Positions 237-17,667 of a DNA stretch of 17,903 nucleotides are shown one piece after another. The translations under genes and the position numbers were made by a program. Every line of letters begins with the position of its first letter. Positions within the stretch are counted from its first letter, which is position 1. The notes beneath the pieces are model-generated. The model ran no database searches. It was not told the origin of the DNA and worked only from the letters and a program-made list of their open reading frames with translations. This DNA is from a virus, in the UHGV virus genome UHGV-1371914; one strand, 5' to 3'.

Positions 237-283
237 TACACGAACGGGGCGGGGTTAGCCCGCTGGGAATGGAAGGAACTGAG

Positions 284-586
284 ATGACATCACAAAGGGC
301 TAAGGAGACACTGAATAGGTTTCACTATGCATCTCTTTCTCAACAATCGTCATATATTAATCCGAGAATTGTATACAAACTCAAGATTCTTAATGCTACA
401 ATTACACCTAAGTTGCACACATTTCGGGCTTCAGTTCCCGGATATTATGTGGAATGGTTTTACAACTCGGCCACTGCCACATACATGTATATTTCAGGAG
501 CAATTAATGGGGTGGTATTCATGGATCAAGGCGACCTTGATTCATTGTGTGACGAATTAGAACGAATGTTTAGCTACAATATTTAG
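284..586 (+). CDS. Hypothetical early protein (100 aa; alternative start ATG 269 gives 105 aa)
   Basis: ORF track 269..586. ATG 284 has a GGAAGGA RBS at 271-277 with 6-nt spacing. The region is AT-rich. No motif recognised. Confidence 0.45.
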   Translation: MTSQRAKETLNRFHYASLSQQSSYINPRIVYKLKILNATITPKLHTFRASVPGYYVEWFYNSATATYMYISGAINGVVFMDQGDLDSLCDELERMFSYNI

Positions 587-1163: not shown

Positions 1164-1229
1164 ATTCCCGGCTGGACGGGTAATACCAGAACTGAAATGA
1201 AATCTAGCCATACACGAAAGGAAACTATC

Positions 1230-1595
1230 ATGGCTGTTGTTTATTCTTCTCTTTCTGACGATTTCGCTGGCAAGAAGGCTTTTTTCACTGCTCAGAATTC
1301 TGCTGTTTCTTTCAAGGAACTGCGTGGCAAGACGATTGAGATCAAGGACATCGTCATTACTGAGGATGATGTGGTCGACACGGACACTGGTGAGGTTGAG
1401 ACGCGGCGTGCGATCACGGTGATTGACAAGGACGGAAAGGCTTATGGCACTTCGTCTCAGACGGTGGGTGCTCAGATTCAGCGGCTTGTGGATATTCTGG
1501 GTGACGTTAAGTCGTGGTCCGAGCCCGTGGTTGTTGAGATCGGTACTGCCAAGTCCGGGCGTGGTCGCGAGTACACGACGGTGACTCTGGCCTGA
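1230..1595 (+). CDS. Single-stranded DNA-binding protein, phi29 p5-like (121 aa from ATG 1230; track ORF begins 1197)
   Basis: AAGGAAA RBS before ATG 1230. From my memory of phi29 p5, blocks FFTAQNSAVSFKEL, AITVIDKDGKAYGTSSQTV and VVVEIGTAKSGRGREYTTVTL resemble p5 blocks IFNAQTGGGQSFKNL, TTIFAADGSLYSAISKTV and VKVVQGTSSKGNVFFSLQL. It lies immediately upstream of the TP and pol genes, as gene 5 does in phi29. Confidence 0.55.
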   Translation: MAVVYSSLSDDFAGKKAFFTAQNSAVSFKELRGKTIEIKDIVITEDDVVDTDTGEVETRRAITVIDKDGKAYGTSSQTVGAQIQRLVDILGDVKSWSEPVVVEIGTAKSGRGREYTTVTLA

Positions 1596-1618
1596 GTGTC
1601 CTTGTAGGATAGTGATTG

Positions 1619-1654
1619 CCCCCTGCCCCTTAGGGGGCAGGGGGTGTCTGTTTT
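1619..1654 (+). terminator. Rho-independent terminator / attenuator after SSB gene (stem ccccctgcccc / ggggcaggggg, loop ttag, then tgtctgtttt)
   Basis: Perfect 11-bp GC-rich stem 1619-1629 / 1634-1644 followed by a U-rich tract 1645-1654. Confidence 0.65.
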
Positions 1655-2720
1655 GGTTAAGTCTCATTGGGGTAAGCATTATCGTTCGTTTAAGCGTGGC
1701 GCTAAACATGCTCGGAATACGGCGAGTGAGATTAGGTCTTTTGTTGGTGGCCTTGATTTTAATCCGCTCCCTGATACTTTATCTGAGGAACAGGGTAAGG
1801 TTAAGGTTAAGTCGGCGAAGACTAGCGCCCGTGAGAAGCATCGTTCGGACCTGGATACTGCGCGTGAGATGCTTCAGGTTGAGCGCGATAGGGCGATTCG
1901 GAAGATGCGTCGGATGGCGACTAGTGACGATGGTGCTGACATTCGTGGTACTAAGTTTGATCCTTTGGGGAAATCGGCTGTTGGAAGGGTGACTTTGAAG
2001 AATGCTGCGCGGGAACTTGAGCGCCTTAGTGAGTTTAATAATTCTAATAGTGTTTGGTACTATAGTGACCGTAAAGGTAATCCCATTTCTGCTAAAGACG
2101 TTCGTCGTTATCGTGATGCTGTGCGACGCTATAATGAGGACATAGAAGCATACGAACGCTCTGTGGCGGGGACTAAGTTGCCTTATATGGGTGACGTTAC
2201 CGTGGGTGATTGGATTAGAGATTTTCGCCCCTCACGATCTTATTTGCCTGGCGGTTCACATTATGCACTTGAGAGAATGAATCCCGATAAGCGAACTGTG
2301 AATTTCGAGTCTGCTGAAGCAATGCGAGAAAAGACTAATAAGGTTCTTGATAGCCTAAGTAAAGCGGCGAAGCAAGAGAAACTTACGGCTGCAAAGCAAC
2401 AGATCGCGGACATGCTTGACGTCATTGGTGACCCAGAACTTTTCGATATTCTTACAGACATTCCTGACGATGTTTTGTGGCTTATGTGGACCGTTAACGG
2501 TGATTTCGCTAATCAGTTGTCTTTGATGTATGAGGCAGCAAAGGAAGGATATTATGATCGCAAGCGGGCAGGTCAGGATATTTGGTATGATGATGTAGAA
2601 GAAGCAAATTCTAGTATTAAGTCTTTGCTTAAAGACTTAAAGGAAGTTAAGATTAAACCGGAGGATGATTTTAGTGGTTCGCCAATCAATAAGCGAAAGG
2701 CCCGGAAGGGCCGTCGCTAG
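1644..2720 (+). CDS. Putative terminal protein (TP) for protein-primed replication (358 aa from GTG 1644; TTG 1653 is a plausible alternative start)
   Basis: Gene immediately upstream of, and overlapping, the protein-primed DNA polymerase gene (the TP-pol arrangement of phi29/Cp-1). Very basic N-terminal region. Third-codon-position bias matches neighbouring genes from 1644 onward. No sequence-level similarity to a known TP could be confirmed by eye. Confidence 0.5.
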   Translation: MSVLVKSHWGKHYRSFKRGAKHARNTASEIRSFVGGLDFNPLPDTLSEEQGKVKVKSAKTSAREKHRSDLDTAREMLQVERDRAIRKMRRMATSDDGADIRGTKFDPLGKSAVGRVTLKNAARELERLSEFNNSNSVWYYSDRKGNPISAKDVRRYRDAVRRYNEDIEAYERSVAGTKLPYMGDVTVGDWIRDFRPSRSYLPGGSHYALERMNPDKRTVNFESAEAMREKTNKVLDSLSKAAKQEKLTAAKQQIADMLDVIGDPELFDILTDIPDDVLWLMWTVNGDFANQLSLMYEAAKEGYYDRKRAGQDIWYDDVEEANSSIKSLLKDLKEVKIKPEDDFSGSPINKRKARKGRR

Positions 2721-4374
2721 GCGTAGCCATAAAAAGGTTCCTTCGTTTTGTGCGGACTTTGAGACGACTACGGTTGAGGATGATTGTCGCGTGTGGTCTT
2801 GGGGTATTATTCAGGTAGGTAAACTGCAGAATTATGTTGACGGCATTTCGATTGATGGCTTTATGTCTCACATTGCCGAAAGAGCCGCACACATTTATTT
2901 CCACAACCTAGCATTTGATGGCACGTTTATTTTGGATTGGCTGCTTAAACACGGATATTGCTGGGTTAAGGAAAATCCTGGGGTAAAAGAATTTACCTCA
3001 CTCATTTCTCGCATGGGAAAGTATTATTCAATTACAGTAGTGTTTGAGACAGGATATCGGGTAGAATTTCGAGACTCATTTAAGAAGCTACCTATGTCCG
3101 TTTCAGCAATCGCCAAGACATTCAATTTACATGACCAGAAACTAGAGATTGATTATGAGAAACCACGCCCAATAGGATATATCCCTACAGAGCAAGAGAA
3201 ACGATATCAGCGGAACGACGTTGCAATTGTTGCTCAAGCGCTCGAAGTTCAGTTTGAAGAGAAGATGACTAAGTTGACGGCGGGTAGTGATTCGCTGGCA
3301 ACATATAAGAAGATGTCTGGAAAACTGTTTATTAGACGGTTTCCGATTCTTTCACCGGAAATAGATACTGAAATTCGGAAAGCATATCGCGGCGGTTTTA
3401 CATATGCTGACCCGCGCTATTCAAAGAAACTGAACGGACAAGGCAGTGTGTATGACGTCAACTCACTTTATCCATCGGTAATGCGAACAGCACTACTCCC
3501 CTATGGTGACCCGATCTATTCTGAAGGGGCACCGAAGACTGATCGACCGCTTTATATTGCTTCTATAACGTTTACAGCGAAACTAAAACCTAATCATATT
3601 CCATGTATCCAAATTAAGAAAAATCTTTCTTTTAATCCCACACAGTATCTTGAAGAAGTAAATGAACCAACTACTGTTGTGGCAACAAATATTGATATTG
3701 AATTATGGAAAAAGCATTATGACTTTAAGATTTATTCATGGAATGGAACGTTTGAGTTTCGGGGATCACATGGTTTTTTCGACACTTATGTCGACCATTT
3801 TATGGAGATTAAGAAAAATAGTACCGGTGGACTAAGGCAAATTGCTAAGTTGCATTTGAACAGCCTTTATGGAAAATTCGCCACTAACCCGGACATCACA
3901 GGAAAACATCCCACACTTAAAGACAATCGCGTTTCACTAGTAATGAATGAACCTGAAATGCGTGATCCTGTTTACACGCCAATGGGCGTGTTTATCACAG
4001 CCTATGCTCGTAAGAAAACTATTAGTGCGGCACAAGATAATTATGAGACATTTGCATATGCTGATACAGACTCACTGCATCTGATTGGGCCTACCACTCC
4101 CCCAGAATCGTTGTGGGTCGATCCGGTAGAACTGGGTGCCTGGAAGCATGAGAGTTCCTTCACAAATTCTGTCTACATTAGGGCGAAGCAATATGCGGAG
4201 GAAATTGATGGTAAACTAGATGTACACATTGCAGGGATGCCGCGCAACGTGGCCGCCACATTGACATTGGGTGACATGTTGACGGGTGGCACTTGGAATG
4301 GTAAACTGATTCCTGTAAGGGTTCCTGGAGGAATAGTCCTCAAGGACACAACATTCACACTCAAGATTGATTAA
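2665..4374 (+). CDS. Protein-primed family-B DNA polymerase, phi29-type (569 aa; alternative start GTG 2674)
   Basis: Exo I FCADFETTT, Exo II YFHNLAFDG, Exo III YQRNDVAIV, motif A YDVNSLYPS, motif B KLHLNSLYGKF, motif C FAYADTDSLHL. Long blocks are near-identical to phi29 pol (RDPVYTPMGVFITAYAR, VRVPGGIVLKDTTFTLK). GGAGG 2660-2664 lies upstream. Confidence 0.95.
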   Translation: MILVVRQSISERPGRAVARRSHKKVPSFCADFETTTVEDDCRVWSWGIIQVGKLQNYVDGISIDGFMSHIAERAAHIYFHNLAFDGTFILDWLLKHGYCWVKENPGVKEFTSLISRMGKYYSITVVFETGYRVEFRDSFKKLPMSVSAIAKTFNLHDQKLEIDYEKPRPIGYIPTEQEKRYQRNDVAIVAQALEVQFEEKMTKLTAGSDSLATYKKMSGKLFIRRFPILSPEIDTEIRKAYRGGFTYADPRYSKKLNGQGSVYDVNSLYPSVMRTALLPYGDPIYSEGAPKTDRPLYIASITFTAKLKPNHIPCIQIKKNLSFNPTQYLEEVNEPTTVVATNIDIELWKKHYDFKIYSWNGTFEFRGSHGFFDTYVDHFMEIKKNSTGGLRQIAKLHLNSLYGKFATNPDITGKHPTLKDNRVSLVMNEPEMRDPVYTPMGVFITAYARKKTISAAQDNYETFAYADTDSLHLIGPTTPPESLWVDPVELGAWKHESSFTNSVYIRAKQYAEEIDGKLDVHIAGMPRNVAATLTLGDMLTGGTWNGKLIPVRVPGGIVLKDTTFTLKID

Positions 4375-4553: not shown

Positions 4554-4651
4554 TTCTTGACCGAATGCGAGGAAGCATCCTAATGAACTGGGCCTTGCTC
4601 GGTTGGGCAGCAACCCTCAGGATTGCTTTCAGATAATTGGGTATTGTGGTA

Positions 4652-4684
4652 GGCTAGGGGCGTAGGCCCCTAGCCACCATTTTA
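4652..4684 (+). terminator. Hairpin at the early/late junction (stem ggctaggggc / gcccctagcc, loop gtag, then accatttt); terminator-like
   Basis: Perfect 10-bp stem 4652-4661 / 4666-4675 followed by a T-run 4680-4683. Located 15 nt upstream of the scaffold-gene RBS. Confidence 0.5.
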
Positions 4685-4698
4685 TGATTGGAGGAAAT

Positions 4699-5541
4699 AT
4701 GGCACTTTCTGACGCTGAGAAGAATGCGCTTAAAGGGCTGAACCCAGATGGTTCCCTGATGAATGAGTCGCAGCGCAAGGCCAATAAGGCTAAGGTCGAC
4801 GCGAAGAATGCCGAGTCCGCTAAGAAGGACAAGGCCGAGCATGGCGGGCGCTCTCTGACCGAGCGGCGCACCGAGGGTGACCCGCAACAGTCTATGGATG
4901 ACGCTCAGACACGAAATAAGGCGGCCCAGAACCTCACGCCGCAGCAGCGCGAGGAATCCGGGATGACCGGTAATGATGTTTTCGATCCGGGCGATTCCGA
5001 CGGAGACAAAAAGGCTGTTTCCCCCGATGACGGGAACATGCTGGAAGGCGCCCCTAAGGACCCTGCGGACGTAGATCATTTCAAGGATACTAAGGCGGCT
5101 TGGAAGCATCTCACGGACGTGTTTGGTGAAAAGGTTTCTGCCTTACAGGCGGAACTTGAGAATCGGCTTGGCGACCAACTTACTCCGACGGACAGGGAGA
5201 CGGGGAATCCGTTTGCTGGGGGCGACGTTCCGGCGTCGAAGGAGATGACGCTGGATGATGTTAAGGAAGCCGCTCAGAGCACGAAGGATGATGCTAAGGC
5301 GGTGCTCAAGGGCGTTGGCGATGTTGGCGGCGCCGCTGTCGAACTAGGTGGCACCGCAGCGAAGGATGCGGGTAATGCTATAGTGGATGGTATGGGGATC
5401 GACCGTAAGGCGGCCGCTAGCACCGGGAAGACGTTGGCAGGTCTTTCGGGACTATTCTCTAGTAGTGACTCAGGGAATGATAAGGTTCCTGATTCTAATT
5501 GGAAACCTAAGTCAATTAACGAACTTTTTAAGGGGAACTGA
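4699..5541 (+). CDS. Putative head scaffolding protein (280 aa from ATG 4699; track ORF from 4684)
   Basis: GGAGGA RBS 4690-4695. Acidic, low-complexity, predicted-helical Ala/Asp/Lys/Glu-rich protein encoded directly upstream of the major capsid gene. Confidence 0.45.
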   Translation: MALSDAEKNALKGLNPDGSLMNESQRKANKAKVDAKNAESAKKDKAEHGGRSLTERRTEGDPQQSMDDAQTRNKAAQNLTPQQREESGMTGNDVFDPGDSDGDKKAVSPDDGNMLEGAPKDPADVDHFKDTKAAWKHLTDVFGEKVSALQAELENRLGDQLTPTDRETGNPFAGGDVPASKEMTLDDVKEAAQSTKDDAKAVLKGVGDVGGAAVELGGTAAKDAGNAIVDGMGIDRKAAASTGKTLAGLSGLFSSSDSGNDKVPDSNWKPKSINELFKGN

Positions 5542-12289: not shown

Positions 12290-12299
12290 GTAGACAGGA

Positions 12300-12342
12300 A
12301 TAGCCTGCCCCGATAGAATTGGGGCAGGCTATTTCTGTGTGG
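12300..12342 (+). terminator. Hairpin terminator/attenuator between fibre and tail-lysin genes (stem atagcctgcccc / ggggcaggctat, loop gatagaatt, then ttctgtgt)
   Basis: Perfect 12-bp stem 12300-12311 / 12321-12332 followed by a U-rich tract. Confidence 0.5.
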
Positions 12343-15964: not shown

Positions 15965-16006
15965 AGTTAATCCCCGGAAGGAACCAACCACTTCCGGGGA
16001 TTAACT
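15965..16006. terminator. Convergent (bidirectional) terminator: perfect 16-bp stem agttaatccccggaag / cttccggggattaact with 10-nt loop
   Basis: Arms 15965-15980 / 15991-16006. An A-tract upstream on + gives a U-tract for the - strand transcript. Sits between the end of the + late operon (15959) and the end of the - right-arm operon (16013). Confidence 0.6.
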
Positions 16007-16288: not shown

Positions 16289-16575
16289 TAAATTACCCCC
16301 ATGCTTTCCAGGCCCAGAAACAGTAGTGTTAGATTTCGTTCCGCAAGACTATTGAAGTAAACAATCGTTCCACTTTCTGTTTTATGTGGATTCCAGGCTT
16401 CCAGGCAGTAATCATTAATTAAACGAAATGCTGTATTGTTGCAATAAATAATGTTTGCGCCGCCTGGCGTGTAACATTCTTTCATTCCATGTGAGCGAAG
16501 TTTACGTTTAACTCCTGCTATGTTCGTGTAATAACGATGGTAATTGTGTGCATTAATACTATTCATCGCTATCAC
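16288..16575 (-). CDS. Hypothetical right-arm early protein (95 aa; GTG 16575 or ATG 16566 start), Cys/His-containing
   Basis: ORF track. Start uncertain. AT-rich. No confident motif. Confidence 0.4.
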   Translation of the reverse strand: MIAMNSINAHNYHRYYTNIAGVKRKLRSHGMKECYTPGGANIIYCNNTAFRLINDYCLEAWNPHKTESGTIVYFNSLAERNLTLLFLGLESMGVI

Positions 16576-17161: not shown

Positions 17162-17390
17162 GGTTTCTTACCACACTGTTTTCAATTCCTGTTTTGCTTG
17201 AAATTATATTATCAATCGAAATTATGTGATACTCATTCGTGACATTCTTAAAATAATGGATGCGATTAGTGTCGGAATAATAGGCGATTTGATATCCCTT
17301 CAATAATACATTAGCGATAAAATTAGAAACTTTCCAATAGGTGAGGGTGACAAAACCGTCACCCTCACCATGATGCGACCTACGCCTCAC
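17154..17390 (-). CDS. Hypothetical right-arm early protein (78 aa, basic N-terminus)
   Basis: ORF track. ATGA start/stop overlap with 17387..17620. AT-rich. Confidence 0.4.
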   Translation of the reverse strand: MRRRSHHGEGDGFVTLTYWKVSNFIANVLLKGYQIAYYSDTNRIHYFKNVTNEYHIISIDNIISSKTGIENSVVRNRE

Positions 17391-17620
17391 AACCGATCAC
17401 CAAACCAAGCCAACAACTCCCACTGAGAACCAAACCAAAACGAATCGCCATCCGTATCACGCACCTCCCACTTCCGAGAACCACGACGAAAAACATAAAT
17501 CTTATCACCACCATAAGACACCAAGCCCCTCTGACCTGCCGCCCAAGTCTGAACGCTGTACCCTGCCTCCTCGTAGAACTTGCTCGCCCCTGCCCCAAGC
17601 AGTGTCTTGATTGCTTCCAT
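17387..17620 (-). CDS. Hypothetical right-arm early protein (77 aa from the ATG at 17620; the alternative ATG 17635 gives 82 aa); first gene driven from the right ITR
   Basis: Identical ITR-encoded GGAAGGA RBS and 6-nt spacer as the left-end gene. GC-rich, unlike the downstream right-arm genes. Confidence 0.5.
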   Translation of the reverse strand: MEAIKTLLGAGASKFYEEAGYSVQTWAAGQRGLVSYGGDKIYVFRRGSRKWEVRDTDGDSFWFGSQWELLAWFGDRL

Positions 17621-17667
17621 TTCAGTTCCTTCCATTCCCAGCGGGCTAACCCCGCCCCGTTCGTGTA

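Follow-up and report, generated by a model that had tools for sequence, protein, structure and literature searches.

A conserved RNA hairpin carrying the terminal protein Shine-Dalgarno sequence downstream of ssb in an Av-1-like phage: a candidate leaky terminator and translational throttle

Gene organization at the ssb-terminal protein junction

The window, which is the whole stretch of DNA analysed here (17,903 nucleotides, UHGV-1371914), is a complete phi29-like phage genome of 17.9 kb with ITRs of 286 bp and is 78% identical to Actinomyces phage Av-1. The junction between the genes for the single-stranded DNA-binding protein (SSB) and the terminal protein (TP) was compared with that of Av-1 and of about 150 metagenomic relatives, whose TP identity is 71-97%. 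Scans of IMG/VR and of metagenomes for more distant relatives that could inform covariation analysis returned only TPs of this same 71-97% identity. The genes and elements considered below, all on the + strand, are as follows.

1230-1595, + strand: ssb gene, encoding a phi29-type SSB, with its stop codon TGA at 1593-1595
1582-1586, + strand: GTGAC, a weak -35-like element within the final ssb codons (Val-Thr), at a distance of 18 nt from the hexamer
1605-1610, + strand: the hexamer TAGGAT, candidate -10 promoter element (family pattern TAnnAT), with a predicted transcription start at G1618, the first hairpin nucleotide
1618-1645, + strand: RNA hairpin, composed of a 5' arm G-CCCCCUGCCCC (1618-1629), a loop UUAG (1630-1633) and a 3' arm GGGGCAGGGGG-U (1634-1645)
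1639-1646, + strand: TP Shine-Dalgarno (SD) sequence AGGGGGUG, within the hairpin 3' arm, ending 6 nt before TTG 1653
1645-1660, + strand: T-rich tail (UGUCUGUUUUGGUUAA), an imperfect terminator U-tract and at the same time the SD-to-start spacer
1653-2720, + strand: terminal protein gene, with start codon TTG 1653; annotated as TP in Av-1
2665-4374, + strand: protein-primed family B DNA polymerase gene (pol), overlapping the 3' end of the TP gene

The product of ssb matches the Pfam family Phi29_Phage_SSB (52 bits) and PHROG 6243, and is on these matches a homologue of phi29 p5. Its start codon is assigned by comparison to ATG 1230 and not to ATG 1197; ATG 1230 and its SD sequence GAAAGGAAA are kept in relatives, and ATG 1197 is not. 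The pol product matches Pfam DNA_pol_B_2 (238 bits) and PHROG 1907, and searches of Pfam and PHROG with TP returned no match. A scan of the whole window against Rfam 15 (E <= 1) gave no match at 1596-1660, and the sole Rfam match in the window, at 4913-4994, is far under its gathering score. No transcript map of Av-1-like phages was found in the literature searched.

An extremely stable and conserved hairpin follows ssb

The GC-rich stem of 11 bp that a preliminary description had placed after the SSB stop codon is borne out. The stem is perfect and C/G-rich (1619-1629 with 1634-1644) and is closed by the loop TTAG; the wobble pairs G1618-U1645 and U1617-G1646 lengthen it to 12-13 bp. Its 10-11 G:C pairs and 4-nt loop begin 22 nt past the ssb stop codon, and the folding energy of the core is -29.2 kcal/mol. 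In its 81-nt context the energy reaches -37.9 kcal/mol (z = -3.5), and none of 200 shuffled sequences folds as well. The hairpin is the top terminator-like match genome-wide, and a perfect stem of at least 11 bp with a loop of 3-8 nt was found in just 2 of 200 Markov-simulated genomes.

The hairpin is kept with identical sequence in Av-1 and is also found in the approximately 150 metagenomic relatives, while the flanks vary. Over 71 haplotypes, 99.2% of the cells of the alignment are paired, and all of the one-sided changes in the stem generate G-U wobbles on the + strand, without a single A-C mismatch. These changes include a 3'-arm A-to-G substitution in 11 haplotypes across clades, a C-to-U substitution in the contig L082 and a C-to-U substitution in the 5' arm. 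A compensatory change, from G-C to A-U, was found at one pair in four haplotypes; the covariation evidence is thin, consisting of this one pair, because the stem is almost invariant. The wobbles confined to the + strand, together with the compensatory pair, therefore point to selection on pairing in the + strand RNA, and the conserved hairpin is, on this comparison of sequences, a + strand RNA structure. The loop is free to vary and among relatives comprises TTAG, CTAG, TTGG, TCTA, TATA and TTATCA, with lengths from 3 to 7 nt. The consensus fold is a single helix, of which just the 12-13 bp core is kept; in Av-1 the helix can be extended to 19 bp via G-U-rich pairs, an extension confined to the Av-1 clade. 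One contig, L086, is devoid of most of the 3' arm, which may be an assembly error. At least 17 nt separate the ssb stop codon from the stem that follows it, and therefore ribosomes terminating on ssb would not melt it.

The pattern of substitutions bears on the idea that the element acts as DNA, either as the operator of a dimeric protein over a promoter or as a cruciform or ssDNA hairpin in replication. The palindrome is perfect and lies directly 3' of a -10-like hexamer, and strand-displacement replication exposes ssDNA. However, the 3'-arm A changes to G in 11 haplotypes and the symmetric 5'-arm T never changes, which fits wobble pairing in RNA and not equivalent half-sites; moreover, the genome-end motif GTGTCTGT, of which a second copy occupies 1644-1651, fails to co-vary with the terminus in Av-1. 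A role as DNA is thus considered highly improbable. A link to replication via the two copies of GTGTCTGT (terminus 1-8 and 1644-1651) was rejected, since Av-1 has the same terminus with a different tail and the repetition of an 8-mer is expected by chance. Mimicry of a host element was also rejected: a pattern search for hairpin copies in 185,000 genomes gave 114 matches, all of which represent an unrelated palindromic repeat, located almost entirely in Thermoanaerobaculia MAGs with single Pirellula and Blastococcus records and none in Actinomyces.

Replication proteins of other phages autoregulate via RNA operators, and the hairpin could be a translational operator bound by the phage SSB, TP or pol, in an autogenous control like that of T4 gp43, T4 gp32 or the MS2 coat protein. 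The stem is nearly invariant beyond the needs of pairing and the TP SD lies inside the hairpin; the loop, which is the usual recognition site, nevertheless varies in both sequence and length, and the invariance of the stem is explainable by selection for all-C:G stability, in that just the non-C:G pairs vary. We regard an operator as quite improbable. An element for RNA processing or stability without termination, functioning as a 3'-exonuclease barrier for a cleaved ssb segment or as an RNase III site that frees the SD, would agree with the intercistronic position and great stability of the hairpin and with the 19-bp helix available to Av-1. The conserved helix is, however, below a typical RNase III substrate (about two turns, around 20 bp) and contains no conserved internal loop or cleavage motif, and a processing element has no need of a T-rich tail. 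This alternative, too, appears improbable.

The TP gene starts in the tail and its SD sequence is buried in the 3' arm

The codon at position 1653 is TTG in the window and ATG, TTG or GTG in relatives, and the TP N-terminus that follows, MVKSHWGKHYRSFKR, is kept among them. In the clades with ATG, there is no start codon from the in-frame TAG in the loop up to this ATG. Of the two starts proposed previously for the TP frame, TTG 1653 is thus upheld by the interchange of start codons at its position, whereas GTG 1644 in the 3' arm is not conserved. The true TP start is, as judged from these relatives, TTG 1653 rather than GTG 1644; the start codon is therefore located in the T-rich tail, 8 nt past the stem, and not inside the stem. 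Two other readings of the frames at this junction were rejected. An upstream open reading frame crossing the hairpin (GTG 1612-1992) lacks its start in Av-1. An SSB-TP fusion made by read-through would profit from the shared frame of the two genes in the window, but two in-frame stop codons, TGA 1593 and TAG 1605, stand between them, and relatives differ in the spacing.

The preliminary description recognized aggggg at 1639-1644 as the 3' arm of the hairpin, and these nucleotides indeed form part of the longer SD-like sequence at 1639-1646. It is not the only SD-like element at the junction, as had been stated, because a second AGGGGG is present at 1632-1637. The duplex between AGGGGGUG and the 16S rRNA 3' end amounts to -16.1 kcal/mol, the best SD:anti-SD pairing of any gene in the genome. 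In the computed ensemble, 1639-1646 is unpaired with a probability of about 1e-10, and opening the SD takes a computed 13.8 kcal/mol, compared with 0.9-7.0 kcal/mol for the SDs of the other genes. When the ribosome-binding site from -16 to +4 is considered, the computed opening cost is 20.5 kcal/mol, far above that of every other gene. The TP gene has the strongest SD in the genome, and this SD is also the most occluded.

The T-rich tail and transcription termination

The preliminary description also invoked a U-tract after the stem. A T-rich tail is present in every clade despite its differing sequence, with an overall composition among relatives of 58% T, 27% G, 12% A and 3% C; in the window the tract is imperfect (TGTCTGTTTTGG). 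With a GC-rich stem placed right behind ssb and this tail, the element is built like an intrinsic terminator, a build that is kept throughout the family. In ssb, orf8 and the antireceptor gene, an A-rich spacer separates SD and start codon, unlike the T-rich spacer of TP. The form of the tail depends on the clade. In clade 2, TTTTGTT or TTTTTTT directly follows the stem, and this canonical arrangement was scored as terminator-like. In the window and the Av-1 clade, G, C or A residues break up the tail (UGUCUGUU, UGAUUGGU); the terminator scan accepts the window tail UGUCUGUUUU, and the full hairpin of Av-1 with UGAUUGGU fails a simple cut-off by which 5 or more of 8 nucleotides must be T. Termination in the Av-1 clade could consequently be weak, and its tail may have been selected for an extension of the SD (GGUGAU) rather than for a U-tract. 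Actinobacterial RNA polymerases, those of mycobacteria included, terminate at GC hairpins with imperfect U-tracts, with the help of NusG (PMC3993855).

A promoter-like hexamer upstream of the hairpin

The interval between the ssb stop codon and the stem contains the hexamer TAGGAT (1605-1610), whose positions 1, 2, 5 and 6 are invariant in 73 haplotypes (2.0 bits) in flanks of only 0.1-1.1 bits. The variants observed are TAGGAT, TAGAAT, TATAAT, TAAAAT and TAAGAT. The hexamer always stands 7-8 nt before the C-run of the stem, across 28 different spacer sequences, and the nucleotide preceding the C-run, which is the 7th or 8th after the hexamer, is always a purine (G, rarely A). The actinobacterial -10 motif is TANNNT, often with no -35 element (PMC6614810, PMC3890552), and TAGGAT fits this motif. 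Further upstream, GTGAC (1582-1586) agrees with NTGAC, a motif known from Streptomyces at a spacing of 18-19 nt. GTGAC(T/G) is found at 18 nt in the window and the Av-1 clade, at 15 nt in clade 2 and not at all in clade 3; its significance as a -35 element is doubtful because clade 2 departs from this spacing. A consensus promoter scan requiring at least 9 of 12 matches detected nothing at the junction in three representatives.

Several other explanations for the hexamer were considered and rejected. It does not take part in a larger RNA helix, since the consensus fold is the core hairpin alone and pairings between the hexamer and the start region differ between clades. A function as a tandem in-frame stop is excluded by the frame, which is not kept between clades, and a function as an upstream SD or standby site is at odds with the identity of the invariant positions, which are T, A, A and T and not the G's. 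Ahead of the antireceptor gene, a freely covarying hairpin carries a conserved hexamer of this kind in its loop (TAGAAT, TACAAT, TATAAT or TATACT); with TAGACA or TTGCAT standing 17-18 nt before it, this hexamer constitutes the best + strand sigma-70-like match. These comparisons make it plausible that an internal promoter initiates RNA at the base of the hairpin, because the invariant TAnnAT stands 7-8 nt before the stem and a similar hexamer exists at the antireceptor hairpin. The earlier argument that there is no room for a separate promoter does not hold up in view of the conserved -10-like TAGGAT with GTGAC 18 nt upstream, and with the invariant hexamer before the stem, the corollary that TP and pol must be made only by read-through from a single ITR promoter loses its support.

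The hairpin may alternatively be mainly a 5'-leader element rather than a terminator. An internal sigma-A-type promoter (-10 TAGGAT, weak -35 GTGAC) would start the TP-pol mRNA at G1618, so that a blunt 5'-terminal hairpin shields the mRNA from 5'-end-dependent decay and the buried SD throttles translation. Invariance at positions 1, 2, 5 and 6 with variation at 3 and 4 is the conservation profile of a -10 element, the distance of 7-8 nt to the stem is fixed, and the purine that always precedes the C-run corresponds to the preference for purines at start sites. TANNNT without a good -35 element is the norm in Actinobacteria, and the like hexamer conserved in the antireceptor-hairpin loop, with its sigma-70-like match, also accords with this proposal. 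Against it, no -35 element is kept across clades, the spacing of GTGAC being 15 nt in clade 2, and the consensus scan of the three representatives is devoid of a promoter at the junction. In addition, the T-rich tail in all clades is left unexplained, and internal transcripts would themselves meet the hairpin and the U-tail. We consider a leader function of this kind unlikely overall, although it retains an appreciable probability.

Proposed role of the hairpin

The reading that we favour, with a confidence somewhat above even, is that the hairpin is a leaky intrinsic terminator after ssb and, in addition, a throttle on TP translation. RNA polymerase arriving from upstream promoters would synthesize the -29 kcal/mol hairpin and then the U-rich tail. 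Many transcripts would end near 1652-1656, yielding abundant ssb mRNA protected by a 3' hairpin, and a minority would read through into TP-pol. In every RNA running past the hairpin, the 3' arm would serve as the TP SD AGGGGGUG, followed by the weak start codon TTG 1653 in the tail. With the SD in the 3' arm and the start codon in the tail, TP initiation would therefore need partial opening of the stem; as the long SD offsets the opening cost only roughly, TP output is expected to be low, and probably that of pol too. The -10-like hexamer at 1605-1610 probably adds a weak internal promoter, whose RNAs, initiated at the first nucleotide of the stem, would carry the same hairpin. A pure terminator model would leave the conserved hexamer unexplained, and a start at the hairpin base would suit a 5'-leader role.

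A broader arrangement, less likely than not, would be that this phage family uses compact promoter-plus-terminator cassettes, the register of the hexamer relative to the hairpin deciding whether transcripts from the promoter carry the hairpin. If this is true, the internal transcript at the ssb/TP junction starts at the first stem nucleotide and inherits a blunt 5' hairpin, which would stabilize and attenuate it and hide the SD, resulting in low TP and pol. Where the hexamer instead falls inside the hairpin, as it does between orf13 and the antireceptor gene and perhaps between orf7 and orf8, transcription would be initiated in the stem itself, and the resulting RNAs would avoid termination and keep their SD accessible. 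Read-through RNA from upstream would be terminated at all three hairpins. The orf7/orf8 junction was anchored by tblastn in divergent clades, and few loci were recovered.

The mechanism proposed for the SSB/TP junction is ordinary in kind and not new, and it is neat in its compaction. If correct, one cassette of 50 nt sets the ratio of SSB to TP and pol in a minimal protein-primed phage via transcription termination, occlusion of the ribosome-binding site and a weak start codon. It would also mirror the internal early terminator of phi29, implying a strategy conserved between widely separated hosts (Bacillota and Actinomycetota). The analysis corrects the TP and ssb starts for Av-1-type annotations, supplies about 150 natural variants of the hairpin element and flags a promoter-hairpin arrangement in abundant human oral phages.

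Comparison with known systems

The 5' hairpins of the ompA and ermC type are 5'-terminal stabilizers of mRNA. If TAGGAT is a -10 element, the predicted transcript of the TP gene starts at the first paired nucleotide, which is the geometry needed for protection from 5' RNases; in the ompA/ermC-type hairpins, by contrast, the gene's own SD is not enclosed in a -29 kcal/mol stem, and no U-tract comes after the hairpin. SD-sequestering hairpins of riboswitch and attenuator expression platforms, in which terminator stem and RBS overlap, and the structure-limited initiation model of de Smit and van Duin resemble the present case in that a stable local helix holds the SD, a strong SD being combined with strong occlusion; under that model, the level of translation should follow the opening energy. 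In contrast to riboswitches and attenuators, the present hairpin shows no sign of an anti-terminator fold, a ligand-binding domain or a leader peptide. The consensus fold contains a single helix, and the ssb/TP hairpin therefore looks constitutive rather than switchable.

Attenuating terminators inside operons include T1, located between rpsU and dnaG in the rpsU-dnaG-rpoD operon of E. coli, and the terminator after gene VIII of the filamentous phage f1. As at the ssb/TP junction, a GC hairpin with a U-rich tail is placed between a highly expressed gene and a low-abundance replication gene, and partial read-through sets the ratio of the two. The downstream ribosome-binding site is separate in both of those systems, whereas here the SD is formed by the 3' arm, and the U-tail provides the spacer and contains the start codon.

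The closest counterpart by position is found in phi29. Its left early operon contains a Rho-independent terminator in gene 4, placed after the SSB gene and ahead of those for TP and pol (Barthelemy, Salas and Mellado 1987, as cited in PMC11476376), and this terminator is thought to favour abundant DNA-binding proteins over replication enzymes (PMC11476376). The likeness, so far as that account describes the phi29 element, consists in the placement of a terminator after the SSB gene and before TP and pol in a protein-primed phage, with an SSB in the present genome that is a Phi29_Phage_SSB homologue. The phi29 terminator lies inside gene 4, whereas the hairpin described here is intergenic, and no equivalent of gene 4 or gene 6 exists here between ssb and TP. 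The phi29 terminator is not reported in that account to hold the ribosome-binding site of the next gene, while here the 3' arm is the TP SD. By analogy with phi29 as summarized there, the logic of high SSB and low TP-pol output that we propose for the Av-1-like phages has a direct precedent.

Genome organization

The phage genome is complete and linear, with perfect inverted terminal repeats (ITRs) of 286 bp, and it is related to Actinomyces phage Av-1, a phi29-like podovirus of the genus Dybvigvirus (78% identity across 71% of the window length). On the + strand, orf1-3 are followed by ssb, the terminal protein (TP) gene, the polymerase gene (pol) and orf7, with the structural and lysis genes coming next; the right end has a few early genes on the - strand. 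The product of ssb, directly before the hairpin, is homologous to the phi29 SSB p5 (Pfam Phi29_Phage_SSB, 52 bits), and pol, the next gene after TP, encodes a protein-primed family B polymerase (DNA_pol_B_2, 238 bits). The TP gene had no family match in the protein-family search, and its label rests on the Av-1 annotation and on gene position.

Several gene boundaries can be refined. The ITR encloses the first orf1 ATG, at 269 (window 269-286 and 17618-17635), and ATG 284, preceded by the conserved Shine-Dalgarno (SD) sequence GGAAGGAA, agrees with the Av-1 orf1 start at 285. The ssb start chosen by analogy with Av-1, ATG 1197, is CCG, TTG, TAG or ACG in relatives and is thus not conserved, whereas ATG 1230 with its SD GAAAGGAAA is (window 1197-1230); therefore, SSB probably comprises 121 aa. 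The annotated pol start, ATG 2665, immediately adjoins its SD (GGAGGATG; window 2660-2676), the alternative GTG 2674 would give a spacing of 9 nt, and residue 18 is the first that the family-profile match covers; pol may truly start further downstream than 2665. The gap separating the lysA end from the convergent - strand genes holds a perfect 16-bp inverted repeat with a 10-nt loop (15965-16006, AGTTAATCCCCGGAAG / CTTCCGGGGATTAACT), likely a bidirectional terminator analogous to phi29 TD1. Within the right-end early gene block, a 12-bp perfect - strand hairpin (17340-17369, GGTGAGGGTGAC-GGTTTT-GTCACCCTCACC), reported as the longest of the genome's perfect stems, may attenuate the right early operon. 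A packaging RNA is annotated in Av-1 (16295-16402), and the Rfam 15 search of the whole window gave no match to it even at E <= 1; should this lineage have one, it escapes the current Rfam model.

Hairpin at the ssb/TP junction

The junction contains the following elements.

1605-1610, + strand: candidate -10 hexamer, TAGGAT, between the ssb stop and the stem
1618-1645, + strand: RNA hairpin between ssb and TP
1639-1646, + strand: SD of TP, AGGGGGUG, the lower half of the 3' arm
1653, + strand: TTG, start codon of TP

The hairpin lies where the preliminary description had placed it, with perfect pairing of C1619-C1629 to G1634-G1644 around a UUAG loop and a helix lengthened by the pairs G1618-U1645 and U1617-G1646. 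Its start lies 22 nt past the ssb stop codon. Its core folds with -29.2 kcal/mol and its 81-nt context with -37.9 kcal/mol (z = -3.5), and it ranks first among the terminator-like sites of the genome. Perfect stems of at least 11 bp with a loop of 3-8 nt arose only twice in 200 Markov-1 simulated genomes.

The 32-nt core is identical in Av-1 despite differing flanks. A wider comparison used 160 loci from IMG/VR and metagenome assembly scans, whose TP is 71-97% identical to that of the window; 149 of them were parsed into hexamer, spacer, 5' arm, loop, 3' arm, tail and start, yielding 69 distinct versions. Among 71 distinct haplotypes, standard pairs fill 99.2% of stem cells and 7 of the 12 pairs are invariant. 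One-sided variation occurs at four pairs, always producing a G-U wobble on the + strand, including A-to-G opposite U (11 haplotypes, across all clades), C-to-U opposite G in the closest relative of the window (locus L082) and C-to-U within the 5' arm. In four haplotypes, one pair is A-U instead of G-C, no A-C mismatch from substitution occurs in the stem of the 71 haplotypes, and the 5'-arm T symmetric to the variable 3'-arm A is never altered. This asymmetry argues for a + strand RNA helix, and against a DNA palindrome, as the target of selection, making a DNA-level role one of the less likely explanations. A protein operator and a processing site are also less likely; loop sequence and loop length both vary (TTAG, CTAG, TTGG, TCTA, TATA, TTATCA), which counts against a loop-reading protein. 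Little strict covariation can be seen in a stem that hardly varies: it is almost entirely C:G, already at maximal stability, and its only two non-C:G pairs are those that drift. Most of the 3' arm is missing from one short contig (L086), through either a real deletion or assembly collapse of G-runs.

The degenerate pattern CCCCCTGCCCC-N4-GGGGCAGGGGG also matched loci L242-L321, which belong to a palindromic repeat dispersed, in dozens of copies per genome, through several Thermoanaerobaculia MAGs and unrelated to the phage.

Start codon and ribosome-binding site of TP

Regarding the TP start, the codon at position 1653 is TTG, ATG or GTG depending on the relative and is always followed by the conserved VKSHWGKHYRSFKR. 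In the ATG clades, no start codon occurs in frame between the loop TAG and the ATG, and the equivalent of GTG 1644 is GGT or GTT. Because the codon at 1653 interchanges among start codons and the ATG clades lack an earlier in-frame start, the comparison places the beginning of TP at 1653. GTG 1644, the first alternative proposed in the preliminary description, is three codons too long, as is the Av-1 annotation. The start had been assigned to the 3' arm or U-tract of the hairpin; it lies in the T-rich tail, 8 nt past the last G of the stem, and not within the stem itself.

The SD does reside in the 3' arm, as proposed, and ends 6 nt before the start codon. With the 3' end of actinobacterial 16S rRNA taken as GAUCACCUCCUUUCU, its duplex reaches -16.1 kcal/mol, the strongest among all genes of the genome under this assumed end, and in the Av-1 clade the tail UGAU extends it to about 10 bp. 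G-run SDs are found at the major capsid gene and orfD as well. Occlusion is far greater at the TP ribosome-binding site than at any other, with a computed opening cost of 20.5 kcal/mol for -16..+4; for the SD alone, the cost is 13.8 kcal/mol, as against 0.9-7.0 at 13 other genes. On thermodynamic grounds, having the strongest SD together with the most buried site and a weak TTG start would be expected of a deliberately throttled gene.

Candidate internal promoter

The preliminary description held that TP and pol must derive from read-through of a single ITR promoter, which is unjustified given the conserved -10-like hexamer upstream of the stem. In relatives the hexamer is TAGAAT, TATAAT, TAAAAT or TAAGAT; across 73 haplotypes, positions 1, 2, 5 and 6 are invariant (2.0 bits), positions 3 and 4 carry 1.7 and 0.9 bits, and the flanks (12 nt upstream and the downstream spacer) carry 0.1-1.1 bits. 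The distance from its end to the C-run is always 7-8 nt, though there are 28 spacer sequences, and the nucleotide directly 5' of the C-run is a purine in every case. Such a profile is that of a bacterial -10 element, and the hexamer matches the actinobacterial TANNNT, which marks 91-97% of the start sites mapped in Streptomyces and Corynebacterium; there the -35 is weak or missing, its common form being NTGAC with a spacer of 18-19 nt, and +1 favours purines (PMC6614810; PMC3890552). GTGAC occurs 18 nt upstream of the window hexamer, in the final ssb codons; clade 2 lacks that spacing. The hexamer has no pairing partner in the consensus fold, the frame of its TAG relative to ssb is inconsistent, and a scan for consensus-type promoters (at least 9/12 matches) found none at this junction. 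An internal promoter here is plausible, with the chances close to even.

The ITR holds TTGACT-17-CATTAT (205-233), inward-facing at both ends. Upstream of ssb by 35-65 nt, a block of ~30 nt (1161-1192, TAGATTCCCGGCTGGRCGGGTAATACCAG) is near-invariant in most clades and replaced by a different inverted repeat in clade 3; it may be an ssb-specific promoter or regulatory element, in which case the single-promoter idea would be weakened further.

Comparable junctions

The orf13/antireceptor junction carries a 21-bp hairpin (12294-12338; loci L162-L241) that lies some 85 nt 5' of the antireceptor start and whose arms covary freely among 64 haplotypes (GCCTGCCCCGA/TTGGGGCAGGC, GCTACTCTTGA/TCAAGAGTAGC, GGTCCTCCCTGG/CCAGGGAGGACC, GCGCCTACCTTAA/TTAAGGTGGGCGC) while the loop region retains TAGAAT, TACAAT, TATAAT or TATACT. 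In the window's clade, TAGACA, TTGCAT, TTGCAC or TGGACA lies 17-18 nt 5' of this hexamer. The promoter-like match is the best on the + strand of the genome (10/12), and the Av-1 annotators likewise marked a -10 there. After the hairpin come a T-rich tail and then a free GGAGGA SD; the arrangement resembles a terminator in which a promoter is embedded, whose transcripts would start inside the 3' arm. In the Av-1 clade, the orf7-orf8 intergenic region (4554-4698, about 145 nt) is highly conserved; it may combine an early terminator with a late promoter region. Its 14-bp hairpin (4648-4677) shows compensatory changes in the upper stem (GGAAC/GTTCC, GGGGC/GCCCC, AAGC/GCTT) and an invariant lower stem that includes TAGGCT; a short T-run, the SD GGAGGA and ATG 4699 follow, and orf8 probably starts at 4699 rather than 4684.

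A + strand hairpin with a T-rich tail is thus coupled to a -10-like hexamer at two, perhaps three, module boundaries. The register is not the same at each, which may be of interest: at the antireceptor, a start 7 nt past the hexamer would fall within the 3' arm, giving RNA without the hairpin, and at ssb/TP it would hit the first stem nucleotide, giving RNA that keeps the whole hairpin, the occluded SD and the U-tail. The hairpin could then be chiefly the 5' leader of a TP-pol mRNA begun at the internal promoter. The conserved hexamer speaks for this main rival and the T-rich tail for termination; we consider this rival rather unlikely.

Termination and comparison with phi29

The 8 nt past the stem are T-rich (T 58%, G 27%, A 12%, C 3%; 106 haplotypes). 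Several clades have TTTTGTT, TTTTGCT or ATTTTTTT right after the stem, which the scan scored as terminator-like, and the window tail UGUCUGUUUU also passes; with the Av-1-clade tail UGAUUGGUUUGG, the full hairpin fails a simple T-count. Since other genes of the phage family have A-rich SD-to-start spacers, the T-rich tail is a conserved peculiarity of TP that fits a U-tract. The RNA polymerase of mycobacteria depends on a U-tract yet accepts imperfect ones, and mycobacterial NusG makes suboptimal terminators more efficient (PMC3993855). In every clade, 17 nt or more separate the ssb stop from the stem, and a ribosome ending translation there would thus not keep the hairpin from folding. A leaky terminator is thus plausible from the sequence, and probably leakier in the window and the Av-1 clade than in clade 2.

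Folding and comparison establish the hairpin structure, its nature as + strand RNA, the TP start codon and, on thermodynamic grounds, the burial of the SD. From the anatomy, the family-wide conservation and the phi29 precedent, we infer termination, read-through and reduced translation. The reading we slightly favour overall is a leaky terminator that would also mask the TP ribosome-binding site, with a weak internal promoter probably supplementing read-through. An account of phi29 (PMC11476376) places a Rho-independent terminator in gene 4, at a position 3' of the SSB gene and 5' of the TP and polymerase genes; the function first proposed for the hairpin is therefore the known phi29 arrangement, in an actinobacterial relative. 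Intra-operon terminators, SD-sequestering hairpins and the phi29 terminator separating SSB from TP/pol are already known. The feature added here relative to phi29 is the fusion of the terminator to the TP ribosome-binding site, unusual in its compactness, with the stem containing the SD and the U-tail containing the spacer and the start codon.
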